The notes under the pieces are model-generated. The model made no database searches and was not told where the DNA came from. It saw nothing but the letters and a program-made list of their open reading frames with translations. Positions 4,005-15,298 of a stretch of 41,441 bases of DNA are shown here, one piece after another. Position 1 is the first letter of the stretch. Each line of letters begins with the position of its first letter. The DNA is from a virus (Duplodnaviria > Heunggongvirae > Uroviricota > Caudoviricetes), in IMG/VR virus record IMGVR_UViG_2541047739_000012, one strand, 5' to 3'. The translations under genes were made by a program, and so were the position numbers.

Positions 4005-4033
4005 ACAAAAAAGCCCGCCTGAACCGGCGGGCT
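4005..4033 (-). terminator. intrinsic terminator-like hairpin between lom and stf
   Basis: Minus strand: stem AGCCCGCC / GGCGGGCT (8 bp) with 6-nt loop, followed by TTTTTT and then the stf RBS and start. Confidence 0.55.
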
Positions 4034-4059
4034 GTCATAACACTGTGTTACCTGGCTAA

Positions 4060-4659
4060 TCAGAATTTATAACCGACACCCACGATGAAACCGTCAGTGC
4101 GCCAGTCACCACTGCCAGAACCTTCATAAGCAATATCAATGGCCACGGATTCGGTCGGGTTAAACTGCACGCCAGCCCCCCACGCCAGAGACGTGTTGCT
4201 GTGGCGACCGTCATCACTTCCGGTCAGCACATCGTGCGTTTTCCCCTTGTTGTCAGTTACGCGGAGATAATCCCCGGAGAAAGTCGACACACGGCTGTAA
4301 GCCACACCCGCCATCGCATACGCGCTGAACCATTCATTCACGCGTACAGACGGCCCCGCCATCACGCTGAACCAGCGGTTACGCACAGAATCTTCATGCC
4401 AGCGGGTATCGCTGTAACGGGTAAGCTGGCGATTCTTGTCTCCTGCATAGCTGAATGACGTCACCATCCCCAGCGTGTCCGTAAACTCATAACGGTATTT
4501 CACGTTAATCCCGTTCAGATCATCGCTGCCGGAAACGTTCGTCGAGGCATGAAGATAGCCCGCGCTCAGCGTGGACTGATGTTCAGACGCCCATGCAGGC
4601 GCACCGGATACGGCCAGACAGATGGCTGCGGACAAAATGGCGGCATAAAGTTTACGCAT
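4060..4659 (-). CDS. lom: outer membrane protein Lom (Ail/Lom family)
   Basis: 199-aa ORF with N-terminal signal peptide ([24 protein letters not shown]), beta-barrel-like alternating pattern, C-terminal ...GVGYKF; lambda Lom-like; sits between J and stf as in lambda. Confidence 0.85.
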
Positions 4660-4681
4660 AATTACCTCTCGCTTTTCTGCA

Positions 4682-4707
4682 ATAAAAAAGGCGTCATTTC
4701 TGACGCC
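4682..4707 (-). terminator. intrinsic terminator between J and lom
   Basis: Minus strand: stem GGCGTCA / TGACGCC (7 bp) with 4-nt loop, followed by TTTTTTAT; lies 19 nt downstream of the J stop. Confidence 0.6.
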
Positions 4708-4725
4708 CGTTATGGGTTATAAAAT

Positions 4726-13858: not shown

Positions 13859-13866
13859 ATGTTGAC

Positions 13867-14178
13867 TCACTGAGACACTATTAAAAGCGCGTTTTCCAGT
13901 CCGGCAAATGGATCTGAGACGCCTTCTGTCTGCTCTTGTTCCCACTGAAGAAGCGCATCATTCAGTGGGACTTTGACACCCTGCGCACCGTAAACCGCAG
14001 AAACTATCTGGGCAGCCCGGATATCAGCCCGCTCGTCACCCAGCGGGCTGAACCTGTCAAATTCTGCCCACATCATGATTTCTGATGCGGACATTTCCCG
14101 GCGTAACTCTGACAATGTGCGCCCCATCCTGAGCGCCAGCATCATCAGAAAACGCATCCCCGGAAGCTCTACTTTTTT
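13867..14178 (-). CDS. T: tail assembly chaperone G-T, -1 frame (T) segment of the frameshift product
   Basis: -1 frame ORF (MRFLMM...) with no independent RBS; it is open back to the slippery run A AAA AAG (minus strand, 14172-14178) at the end of G. A -1 slip there joins ...GEVKK to KVELPGMRFLMM... Confidence 0.6.
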   Translation of the reverse strand, partial: KKVELPGMRFLMMLALRMGRTLSELRREMSASEIMMWAEFDRFSPLGDERADIRAAQIVSAVYGAQGVKVPLNDALLQWEQEQTEGVSDPFAGLENALLIVSQ

Positions 14179-14555
14179 TTAACCTCGCCGGCATCACTGA
14201 TCAGTTCCAGAGACTGCCGAAGAAGCCGCGCATGCACCGGGCCATACACGGCAATCACCTGTTCACGATCATCCTCTGAAAATACAGGTTGCAGTCCGGT
14301 ATCACACAGAACATCAATGAACAGTTCAACATCTGCCTCCAGATTTCGGCGGGCGCGCTCCGCAACGGATAACGGTGTCTCATCATCTTTTGCTTTAACG
14401 ATCTCCTGCCAGCGCAACCAGGCTTCTGCAGAAGGTTCCCGTAATACAACCGTTGCCCCTTCCCATTCAGGCACATCAACAGTTTTATGGCGAAACCCCG
14501 ACATCGTTGCCAGTGCCAGATTGCGGATATTTTTAGTCATCACATCTATCCTCAT
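14169..14555 (-). CDS. G: tail assembly chaperone G
   Basis: 128-aa ORF ending ...GEVKKK-TAG across an A8G slippery run; position between V and H. Start is ATG 14553-14555 (overlapping the V stop) or ATG 14538-14540 (better SD GAGGAT). Confidence 0.7.
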   Translation of the reverse strand: MRIDVMTKNIRNLALATMSGFRHKTVDVPEWEGATVVLREPSAEAWLRWQEIVKAKDDETPLSVAERARRNLEADVELFIDVLCDTGLQPVFSEDDREQVIAVYGPVHARLLRQSLELISDAGEVKKK

Positions 14556-15259
14556 TAACTGACGGTAACAGTGCAGGAAGTGGAGGTCACCTTGTTAACA
14601 GGGCTTGCTGAATCAGAAATCTCGCAGGTATACGCACCGGCATCACCTGATGCTGCTGATGCCTTACTGAATGTTGCCGCCGTCTGTCCGGAAACAGGAG
14701 AACTACCTTTCTTCCAGACATAAGAATAAGGCGGCACACCACCGGCAGCCTCAACCACCATTTCGAGTTTCGCTCCGGCAGAAACCTGCAGCGTGCTGTT
14801 TAAATCGACCTTCACTTTCAGCGGCTCTGTCGTCAGCACAGGTTTACCTTTCAGGCGCAGGGAAAACGTTGCAGCCACAACACCATTAGTTCCTGCAGAC
14901 CAGGTATGCTGACGCACCTCTGCCATAAAGGTAAATCCGTTGCCTGACGGAAAAATAACTTTAAAGCCATACGTGGTGTCATTGTCATAGGCACTGCGCA
15001 ACGCGTTCTGGGCAGCATTGAGGTAAAAGTTGCCTGACATGGAAATCTCTGACGCGGCACCAAGGCCGTTAATATTTTCCTGCTCAACAGAACACAGCGT
15101 GGTGACATCAATATCCTGCTTTTGTCCTGCGGTAAACTGCACCTCTTTGATTGTACAGCTCAGGCCAAGATAGCTGGCAGAATCCAGGGTTTCTGCTGTT
15201 ACCGGTGCAGACGAAATCATAATTTTCGTCAGTTGCGAACGCTCAAAATTAGAGGACAT
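14555..15259 (-). CDS. V: major tail protein V (with C-terminal Ig-like domain)
   Basis: ORF track 14555..15310; ATG at 15257-15259 (MSSNFERSQL...) preceded by a strong AGGAGA SD; C-terminal region resembles a Big_2/Ig-like domain as in lambda V. Confidence 0.8.
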   Translation of the reverse strand: MSSNFERSQLTKIMISSAPVTAETLDSASYLGLSCTIKEVQFTAGQKQDIDVTTLCSVEQENINGLGAASEISMSGNFYLNAAQNALRSAYDNDTTYGFKVIFPSGNGFTFMAEVRQHTWSAGTNGVVAATFSLRLKGKPVLTTEPLKVKVDLNSTLQVSAGAKLEMVVEAAGGVPPYSYVWKKGSSPVSGQTAATFSKASAASGDAGAYTCEISDSASPVNKVTSTSCTVTVS

Positions 15260-15270
15260 ACTCGTCTCCT

Positions 15271-15298
15271 GAAAATAAAAAACCCGCCAGCGGCGGGT
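15271..15298 (-). terminator. intrinsic terminator-like hairpin immediately upstream of V
   Basis: Minus strand: stem ACCCGCC / GGCGGGT with 3-nt loop, followed by TTTTTTATTTTC and then the V RBS. Confidence 0.55.

Follow-up and report, generated by a model that had tools for sequence, protein, structure and literature searches.

What role might hairpins followed by U-runs play at the gene boundaries of a late operon that is predicted to depend on the antiterminator Q? The question is raised by the window, i.e. the whole stretch of 41,441 nt analyzed here (IMG/VR record IMGVR_UViG_2541047739_000012), in which a lambda-like E. coli prophage carries its tail genes on the minus strand, with hairpin-plus-U-run signals at five junctions. 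The tail module of the late operon (585..15663, minus strand) comprises U-like, V, G, T, H, M, L, K, I, J, lom, and stf, as deduced from ORFs, Pfam matches, and comparison with phage vB_EcoS-640R1, which shows 96% identity to the tail module and agrees in its annotation; gene names were verified against Pfam. The accessory gene lom (4060..4659, minus strand) encodes an Ail/Lom outer-membrane protein (PF06316, E 5e-119) and has one terminator-like element on either side. Upstream of the late operon lies the Q antiterminator gene (27140..27508, minus strand; PF06530 Phage_antitermQ, E 5e-52, full-length domain), and according to ORFs and Pfam matches the lysis, head, and tail genes follow downstream of it, all on the minus strand; the head genes are of the HK97 type. 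A bidirectional-looking hairpin is located near the Q gene (27104-27123); in the interval between Q and the lysis genes it is followed by an AT-rich antisense cassette of 1.5 kb as well as by four tRNA genes.

Anatomy of the junction hairpins and expectation by chance

The original prediction had placed five hairpin-plus-U-run structures on the minus, i.e. coding, strand of the tail module, and all five were found there at the positions given. The U-like|V element (15277..15298, minus strand) has a 7-bp stem (15282-15298), a 3-nt loop, six U, and a ΔG of −12.6 kcal/mol, and the V ATG (15259) follows 22 nt past the hairpin. At T|H (13838..13858, minus strand), a 6-bp stem (13843-13858) is closed by a cUUCGg tetraloop and followed by seven U (ΔG −8.5), with the probable H start, GTG at 13821, 21 nt further on. 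The J|lom element (4683..4708, minus strand) consists of an 8-bp stem (4689-4708) with a GAAA loop and six U (ΔG −13.6), and the lom ATG (4659) lies 29 nt past the stem. At lom|stf (4007..4033, minus strand), an 8-bp GC-rich stem with a 6-nt loop (4012-4033, AGCCCGCC-GGTTCA-GGCGGGCT) and six T at 4007-4012 reach −18.2 kcal/mol (z −5.1), and the stf ATG (3995) is found 16 nt past the hairpin. The fifth hairpin, I|J (8222..8251, minus strand; stem 8230-8251, GAAACCGCC-TGCG-GGCGGTTTT, then GTCGTTTAT; ΔG −15.2), stands 21 nt before the J ATG (8208); its U-run is broken (UUUUGUCGUUU), and it had fairly been called weak. The starts used here for V, stf, and, probably, H are better placed than the mechanical ORF starts.

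All five thus have the stem-loop of a Rho-independent terminator, with stems of 6–9 bp, loops of 3–6 nt, and ΔG values between −8.5 and −18.2 kcal/mol. The accompanying U-run comprises 5–7 T in every element but I|J, where it is borderline. Free energies of this size combined with 5–7 U, as present in four of the five elements, are in the usual range of intrinsic terminators. The distances are short as well, with 8–26 nt from the upstream stop codon to the start of the hairpin and 16–29 nt from its end to the next start codon, and every one of the latter intervals contains a Shine-Dalgarno motif, as had been expected from the claim that each hairpin is followed by the ribosome-binding site (RBS) of the next gene. 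Every gap of at least 39 nt in the tail module has a hairpin.

The elements were also rated with a d'Aubenton-Carafa-type score. Only five elements on the late strand had positive values, namely the junction hairpins other than I|J, with U|V reaching the top score, and a further hairpin 3′ of the major capsid gene. I|J scored negative with its long stem and, by a hand estimate, would become positive with a shorter one. For the expectation by chance, the late strand of window positions 1-24437 was scanned for structures with ΔG ≤ −8 and at least 4 contiguous T and compared with 100 dinucleotide shuffles. Four matches were found versus 0.11 ± 0.31 expected, and all four strong matches fall within the approximately 300 nt of gaps out of 24.4 kb. 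The antisense strand gave 0 matches at the same thresholds, and bidirectional terminators were therefore rejected. Excess and strand bias together argue for a direction-specific function at the RNA level. A common repeat family was also considered and discarded: four of the stems have a CCGCC/GGCGG core in common, but such a core is common among GC-rich terminators, and the flanking sequences bear no relation to one another.

The original prediction did not include the operon's strongest hairpin. It is located just 3′ of the major capsid gene (16979..17004, minus strand; ΔG about −25, z −4.8) and has a poor U-run (UGUUCUGA). It probably belongs to a different class, being either a weak terminator or an mRNA 3′ stabilizer.

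Conservation and accessory-gene slots

The five signals are real and conserved. They were compared among 80 related IMG/VR loci, while the diversity across phages was taken from named phage records; a contig scan mostly gave phage lambda DNA in assemblies of unrelated taxa. The U|V and lom|stf hairpins are conserved in the 80 loci, with changes at lom|stf almost solely of the wobble or loop type, and the T|H hairpin is conserved in the relatives, too. At I|J the stem is invariant in these loci and the loop variable. An outer helix at I|J that sequesters the J Shine-Dalgarno sequence in the minimum free energy fold was dropped from consideration, as flank variants in the 80 loci showed no consistent covariation. 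The J|lom stem shows signs of selection: 97% of cells are paired, compensatory changes occur in 2 of 8 pairs (GGCGTC/GACGCC, GGCACC/GGTGCC, and GGCGCC/GGCGCC), and the score was reached by 1 of 500 shuffles. Some J|lom variants have hybrid left and right arms, and one relative (L189) carries near-identical hairpins at two junctions of its operon. The U-runs are conserved as strongly as the stems among the relatives. Beyond them, no fewer than 8 lambdoid tail modules have a hairpin with a T-run ahead of J, namely those of lambda, HK97, N15, HK022, phi80, Gifsy-2, EPEC PP6, and a Citrobacter prophage, and the stems represent at least 6 different sequences. The slot hairpins are T-rich; T-poor are the post-capsid hairpin, its counterparts in lambda (E|FI), HK97, N15, and phi80, and the V|G hairpins of HK97 and N15.

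Relatives of the prophage differ in what they carry upstream of these hairpins. Two different AT-rich ORFs are inserted between T and H, one set of relatives being L245, L261, L264, L278, and L279 and the other L273, L277, and L295, and in each case the same hairpin is kept just 5′ of the H RBS. At I|J, L145 has an additional ORF on the upstream side of the hairpin, while HK97 and HK022 have morons in this slot, EPEC PP6 has the antisense sRNA PasB, and Sakai Sp15 has a homologous gap. Between J and stf, lom is precisely missing in L165 and L166, where the indel breaks at the T-runs and the J|lom hairpin is joined directly to the stf RBS; the lom|stf hairpin is thus the right boundary of the lom cassette. 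Since extra cassettes lie upstream of the hairpin at T|H and I|J and the J|lom hairpin is fused to the stf RBS in lom-less relatives, the hairpins mark slots into which accessory (moron) genes can insert. Of the slots in this window, those at T|H, I|J, and U|V hold no cassette. No occupant of the U|V slot was seen in the 80 relatives or in HK97, HK022, and EPEC PP6, which counts against the explanation favored below.

Morons were reportedly treated by Juhala et al. 2000. The term denotes an accessory gene inserted between adjacent late genes, with its own promoter, a factor-independent terminator, and atypical G+C content (PMC3594210). Like morons, lom and the T|H and I|J cassettes of relatives are inserted genes present in some relatives only and have a terminator-like hairpin at their 3′ side: lom stands between genes that are adjacent in the lom-less relatives and is followed by the factor-independent terminator-like lom|stf hairpin. 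Unlike typical morons, lom showed neither an own promoter nor atypical G+C. Scanning and inspection by eye of the end of J, of the J|lom hairpin itself, and of the 29 nt that separate its stem from the lom ATG gave no acceptable sigma-70-like −35/−10 pair, and the cassette as delimited by the lom-less relatives is thereby devoid of such a promoter. For the relatives' accessory cassettes, a simple consensus scan, which weak or non-consensus promoters could escape, likewise gave none. The G+C content of lom (0.553) resembles that of J (0.561) and stf (0.535), and the relatives' T|H and I|J cassettes are AT-rich by eye. The suggestion that the hairpins account for expression of lom in the lysogen was not upheld, because a J|lom terminator 29 nt before the lom ATG, with no promoter between or nearby, would shield lom from transcripts arriving from upstream instead of accounting for its expression.

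Possible functions of the hairpins

We hold it to be slightly better than an even bet that the five elements truly are Rho-independent terminators, encoded on the sense strand of a Q-dependent late operon and placed at the few junctions that tolerate moron cassettes, where they would stop Q-independent transcripts in the prophage and be read through by Q-modified polymerase. Read-through in lytic growth combined with a stop of Q-independent prophage transcripts is most likely, being the most economical reading, because the elements have the anatomy of intrinsic terminators on the sense strand only, the Q gene is complete, and the effect of Q on hairpins is known. The slots are built alike: after the stop codon of the upstream gene comes, as an option, an accessory gene, then the hairpin with its U-run, the RBS, and the structural gene that follows. 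Ordinary sigma-70 transcription of the prophage, whether it begins in accessory genes or at spurious internal promoters or enters by read-in, would be halted at the hairpins; the downstream tail genes would stay silent, and such insulation would be the function under selection. After induction, polymerase loaded with Q at the late promoter would be unable to form terminator hairpins in its exit channel and would pass all of them, giving one long late mRNA.

Several observations count against this explanation. The U-run at I|J is weak, lom has the G+C content of its neighbors, and no consensus promoters turned up before lom or before the relatives' accessory ORFs in the scans made. Also, the late promoter and the Q binding element of the prophage were searched for and not located, nor was a promoter-proximal terminator tR′, and the 1.5-kb antisense cassette separates Q from the late genes.

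Other functions of the hairpins were weighed against termination of Q-independent transcripts. In a scenario that seems doubtful to us, the hairpins would fold in the late mRNA after passage of Q-modified polymerase and act in processing or stability by blocking 3′-to-5′ exonucleases or guiding endonucleases, so that the half-lives of segments such as V-G-T differ and help to set protein stoichiometry. The arrangement would suit this, as the U|V and T|H hairpins bracket V-G-T, the I|J and J|lom hairpins bracket J, the strongest hairpin stands just after the major capsid gene, and in lambda, N15, phi80, and HK97 hairpins follow or flank capsid and major tail genes. Blocking of exonucleases, however, needs no long conserved U-runs, the hairpins after highly expressed genes are the T-poor ones, and the behavior of the T|H, I|J, and J|stf slots is not predicted. 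The U|V hairpin moreover stands upstream and not downstream of V, the wrong place for an effect as terminator or 3′ stabilizer, so that the idea of raised V expression is not supported either. An influence on stability could be a secondary effect of the same hairpins. In lambda tails, the protein amounts needed drop from V to H, J, and stf. The hairpins stand at exactly these transitions and could be partial terminators that act even on Q-modified polymerase and step transcription down along the operon, with much V and smaller amounts of H, J, and stf as the outcome; PMC8022706 raises this as one of two possibilities. We regard such a step-down as quite improbable: Q builds a nozzle onto the RNA exit channel, where terminator hairpins are thereby kept from forming (PMC9388147; likewise bioRxiv 10.1101/651190 on hairpin formation by Q-loaded polymerase), a step-down design would not place a terminator right in front of the gene for the most abundant tail protein, V, and lambda builds the same kind of tail without U|V and T|H gaps.

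Two further readings start from the movement of genes. The hairpin-plus-T-run elements may, though this appears unlikely, be docking sites for accessory-gene traffic, at which cassettes of the type RBS, gene, terminator come and go through recombination or slippage, with the T-runs of terminators already in place as the sites of exchange. Such traffic would account for two T-runs being the exact break points of the lom indel, and it would explain why the same hairpin occurs with and without cargo at T|H and I|J, and how hybrid arms and duplicated hairpins came about; if true, terminators would shape where lambdoid genomes can grow, beyond what gets transcribed. The same four observations, i.e. 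hairpins kept with and without a cassette, breaks at T-runs, hybrid J|lom arms, and the near-identical hairpin pair of L189, would also be expected if the terminators came with cassettes or served as recombination points and persist with little present function as scars in empty slots, here T|H and I|J. Mere footprints of this kind are improbable, since pairing among the variants is near-perfect and includes compensatory changes, a hairpin plus T-run before J is kept with unrelated stems across distantly related phages, and the U|V hairpin persists with no cassette there in the phages and relatives examined. We consider it very improbable that the hairpins are 3′ ends of Hfq-binding small RNAs derived from tail-gene ends and made in the lysogen, with hairpin plus U-run as the Hfq-binding module. 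Prophage late regions are rich in Hfq-bound sRNAs, and a hairpin followed by poly-U is a known Hfq-binding module (PMC4104026); PasB, located between I and J in EPEC PP6, and the homologous gap in Sakai Sp15 point the same way. But PasB is encoded on the opposite strand and is absent from the window, no promoter was found upstream of the hairpins, and the sequence 5′ of them is coding and mosaic. PasB, AgvB, AsxR, and other known prophage sRNAs were looked for at the five sites, with no match to an Rfam family at any of them and no occurrence of the PasB probe sequence at up to 3 mismatches.

If the hairpins stop Q-independent transcripts as favored here, they could explain how approximately 15 kb of tail genes stay silent in the prophage while accessory genes such as lom are expressed. 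They would also mark places for harmless gene insertion in the lambdoid tail operon, which would be useful for phage engineering. The locus offers a convenient test case, as four of its sites are strong and one is weak, and close relatives provide both occupied and unoccupied forms of the same slot. A Term-seq data set exists for EHEC Sakai (PMC7547250). A positive result would confirm an expected idea and not overturn one, and the value lies mainly in annotation and in framing an experiment.

Comparison with known phage systems

Lambda itself provides a graded comparison. Its I|J hairpin is nearly identical to that of the prophage, its lom|stf hairpin has the same flanks with changed stem and loop, and its J|lom hairpin stands in the same place with unrelated sequence. 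In contrast to the prophage, lambda has no gap at U|V (7 nt) or T|H (overlapping genes), and it has hairpins at D|E and E|FI, where the prophage carries HK97-type head genes. The intrinsic terminator tR′ of lambdoid phages is overridden only by Q-loaded polymerase, and a Q gene is likewise present in the prophage; tR′, however, is a regulatory terminator beside the late promoter, whereas the prophage hairpins are located 9–21 kb downstream. The I|J slot also harbors PasB of EPEC and possibly EcOnc22-24 of EHEC. PasB ends in a hairpin plus U-run, but its gap measures 240 nt and it is encoded on the strand opposite to the tail genes, whereas the I|J gap of the prophage measures 60 nt and lacks PasB.

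The P22-like phage L differs from the prophage in having a podovirus virion module, and the junction concerned is the end of the procapsid genes. For this phage, Casjens and co-workers described predicted terminators in a single-promoter antiterminated late operon in 2021, put forward two functional hypotheses, and stated of such intra-operon terminators that "their roles are not known" (PMC8022706).

The closest parallels are found in the records of three phages. Putative terminators are annotated in HK97 (NC_002167) at tail terminator|major tail, which is the junction equivalent to U|V, at gp15 moron|H, before I, before J, and after the capsid gene; in N15 (NC_001901) at D|E, E|FI, V|G, I|J, and before the tail fibre gene; and in phi80 (NC_021190) at M|L and before the tail fibre gene. 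HK022 and EPEC PP6 have different hairpins at the junction equivalent to U|V. HK97, N15, and phi80 resemble the prophage in that the same junctions carry, in a short gap directly ahead of the following RBS, a sense-strand hairpin plus T-run, but the stem sequences differ, and the prophage lacks a V|G or K|I hairpin and has an added pair around lom. The feature is therefore already known, with the same signals annotated in HK97, N15, and phi80 and present in lambda and with the same functional hypothesis formulated for phage L, and the prophage is a well-documented example of it.

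Gene layout of the prophage

The window corresponds to an E. coli prophage of the lambdoid type, with a tail region 96% identical to phage vB_EcoS-640R1. The late genes are located on the minus strand, including Q (27140-27508; antiterminator, Pfam PF06530), four tRNA genes (Gly-TCC, Thr-TGT, Lys-TTT and Met-CAT; 24950-25259) between Q and the lysis genes, the lysis genes themselves, the terminase, portal and protease genes, an HK97-type capsid gene (17010-18215), and a lambda-type tail module assigned by ORFs and Pfam (U-like, V, G, T, H, M, L, K, I, J, lom, stf, tfa). The mechanical ORF starts of three genes were replaced by better-positioned ones: V at 15259, stf at 3995, and H probably at GTG 13821. 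A 62-aa ORF (16770-16958, minus strand) without Pfam match separates the capsid gene from the head-tail adaptor; it is missing from the closest phage 640R1, where the gap is 76 nt.

Q is separated from the tRNA and lysis genes by an AT-rich (40% G+C) cassette of ~1.5 kb (25556-27104, plus strand), which is antisense to the late operon and carries two ORFs (293 aa and 143 aa), both without Pfam match. A bidirectional-looking hairpin (27104-27123) lies between this cassette and Q, and a promoter-like site (25269-25297) accompanies the tRNA genes. Compared to phage 689R5, whose Q type differs, the block 25313-27541 has been replaced in a mosaic manner. The early region matches two Rfam families, the sok antitoxin RNA (30194-30369, minus strand; 112 bits) and DicF RNA (35999-36050, plus strand; 77 bits).

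Anatomy, strand bias and conservation of the hairpins

Hairpins with a U-run had been predicted at five junctions of the tail operon, each followed by the RBS of the next gene. All five are present on the coding strand, with a Shine-Dalgarno motif between stem and start codon in each case: U/V (15277-15298; ΔG -12.6 kcal/mol, z-score against shuffles -2.7), T/H (13838-13858; -8.5 kcal/mol, z -3.6), I/J (8222-8251; -15.2 kcal/mol, z -4.0), J/lom (4683-4708; -13.6 kcal/mol, z -4.5), and lom/stf (4007-4033; -18.2 kcal/mol, z -5.1). Their geometry is uniform: stems start 8-26 nt past the upstream stop codon and end 16-29 nt ahead of the next start. Each tail-module gap of at least 39 nt contains one of the five elements; genes at the remaining junctions overlap or are separated by at most 11 nt. 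Four of the hairpins (U/V, T/H, J/lom and lom/stf) are followed by 5-7 consecutive U. The tail of I/J reads UUUUGUCGUUU, and therefore its labelling as weak was fair. The minimum free energy fold of 8215-8262 (minus strand) adds an outer helix to the I/J hairpin, which would cover the Shine-Dalgarno motif of J; variants of the relatives showed no consistent covariation for this helix.

Strong elements, defined by ΔG ≤ -8 and at least 4 contiguous T, were counted on the late strand (1-24437) and in 100 dinucleotide shuffles. Four were observed, all within ~300 nt of gaps, compared to 0.11 ± 0.31 in shuffles; at the same threshold, the antisense strand contained none. A d'Aubenton-Carafa-type discriminant was positive only for U/V, lom/stf, J/lom, T/H and one further hairpin, the sixth, which follows the capsid gene; I/J was negative with the long stem and, by hand estimate, positive with a shorter one. 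Stabilities too low for termination, which would have spoken against the prediction, were therefore not found.

Among 80 IMG/VR relatives, 19 distinct J/lom junctions were found, in which the U-run and lom leader are invariant and the stem occurs as GGCGTC/GACGCC, GGCACC/GGTGCC or GGCGCC/GGCGCC, with a few hybrid arms. In 13 distinct sequences, 97% of cells are paired and two of the eight pairs show compensatory changes; the covariation score was reached by only 1 of 500 shuffles. For I/J, close relatives share an invariant stem and a variable loop, and U/V and T/H are nearly invariant except for T-run length. A hairpin with T-run directly before J is also present in lambda, HK97, N15, HK022, phi80, Gifsy-2, EPEC prophage PP6 and a Citrobacter prophage; at least six different stems are represented in this set. 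At U/V, HK97, HK022 and EPEC PP6 have hairpins whose stems are unrelated, and EPEC PP6 and HK97 also have a hairpin at T/H. The Citrobacter prophage carries a nearly identical hairpin (AACCGCCTCCGGGCGGTT) at I/J and J/stf (L189, 9958-9977 and 13409-13428).

During the contig scan, J fragments 98-99% identical to J of the window were obtained on short, low-coverage contigs (L168-L217) from many unrelated taxa, e.g. Neobacillus, Shewanella, Pseudomonas and Streptomyces. Apparently, these assemblies are contaminated with DNA of lambdoid phages of E. coli, perhaps lambda control DNA.

Insertion slots at the hairpins

In the comparison with relatives, the hairpins mark insertion slots for accessory genes. 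In 66 of the 80 relatives, the T/H hairpin directly follows T as in the window. In 11 loci (L245, L261, L264, L278, L279, L273, L277, L295 and three duplicates), an AT-rich cassette fills this slot, encoding either a 113-aa membrane zinc-ribbon protein (ORF disrupted in L278) or a lipoprotein-like protein (accessory ORFs at, e.g., L245 3200-3640 and L273 3200-3650), and the hairpin (AAAACCGCTTCGGCGGTTTTTTTT or AAACCGCAGAAGCGGTTTTTTT) is kept downstream of the cassette, just before the H RBS. HK97 carries the gp15 moron and an annotated terminator here. At I/J, relative L145 contains an AT-rich lipoprotein-like ORF (720-1200), and in the hairpin downstream of it an A:T pair is changed to G:C in a compensatory manner; HK97 and HK022 have the morons gp22/gp23, phi80 has morF, and EPEC PP6 has the antisense sRNA PasB. 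In the lom-less relatives L165 (13440-13560) and L166 (13380-13490), a J/lom-type hairpin with a TTTTTTATT run is fused straight to the stf RBS. The lom cassette is therefore made up of an RBS, lom itself, the second hairpin and its T-run; both breakpoints are at terminator T-runs, leaving no room for a promoter. An occupied U/V slot was never found in the 80 relatives, HK97, HK022 and EPEC PP6.

Proposed function and comparison with known phages

Read most economically, the five elements would act as intrinsic terminators on transcription that does not depend on Q. In the prophage, they would stop such transcription, so that the tail genes stay silent, and they would end transcripts of accessory cassettes. 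Q-loaded polymerase should read through, because hairpins are precluded from forming once Q has narrowed and extended the exit channel of the RNA (PMC9388147; bioRxiv 10.1101/651190). This core idea of the original prediction is reasonable. Anatomy, strand bias, conservation and slot structure are demonstrated by the sequence comparisons, from which termination, read-through and the selected function are inferred. The suggested effects on single genes found no support: the J/lom terminator is located 29 nt ahead of lom and is not followed by a promoter, so that it does not account for lom expression in lysogens, which has been reported for lambda, and V expression cannot be increased by a terminator that precedes this gene. 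The terminator reading has several weaknesses: no promoter was detected for lom or the relatives' cassettes, U/V is without known cargo, the I/J U-run is weak, and the late promoter was searched for but not located, with Q set apart from the tRNA and lysis genes by the 1.5-kb antisense cassette.

Alternatively, but with lower probability, the hairpins could be mRNA stabilisers. The hairpin after the major capsid gene (16979-17004, minus strand; ~-25 kcal/mol, z -4.8), 5 nt past the stop codon, has a poor U-run. The same holds for the equivalent hairpins of lambda, HK97, N15 and phi80 and for those at V/G in HK97 and N15. Instead of a terminator, the capsid-gene hairpin may be a 3' stabiliser of the mRNA. 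Unlike these T-poor hairpins, slot hairpins carry 6-8 T. In this small sample, the hairpins seem to fall into two classes, with true terminators at the slots and stabiliser-like structures behind the most abundant genes. The slot hairpins could also be partial terminators even on Q-modified polymerase, or neutral scars, set against the compensatory changes described for J/lom. As a further and least likely rival, they could be 3' ends of Hfq-binding sRNAs. The 240-nt I/J gap of EPEC PP6 (L003 11257-11496) contains the antisense Hfq-dependent sRNA PasB and a sense hairpin before J, and the homologous gap of Sakai Sp15 (L304 2192-2431) is 77% identical; Hfq peak EcOnc22 (Tree et al.) falls in or next to the latter; an offset of up to ~128 nt is possible between the coordinates of the two Sakai record versions. 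IS009, which a preprint by Zhu, Shabalina and Storz reports to be often located next to PasB, has a full-length Rfam match (219 bits) in the window inside the tail-fibre assembly gene tfa (44-242, minus strand).

To what was known, this analysis makes small additions: formal statistics, compensatory changes, slots that occur both with and without a cassette, a lom cassette that has T-runs at both boundaries and no promoter, and the distinction of T-rich and T-poor hairpins. The finding itself is an instance of a known feature, because lambda, which differs in having no U/V or T/H gap, possesses sequence homologues of three of the five elements (I/J, J/lom and lom/stf), putative terminators are annotated at the same junctions in the GenBank records of HK97, N15 and phi80, and gene-plus-terminator cassettes in late operons correspond to the moron concept.
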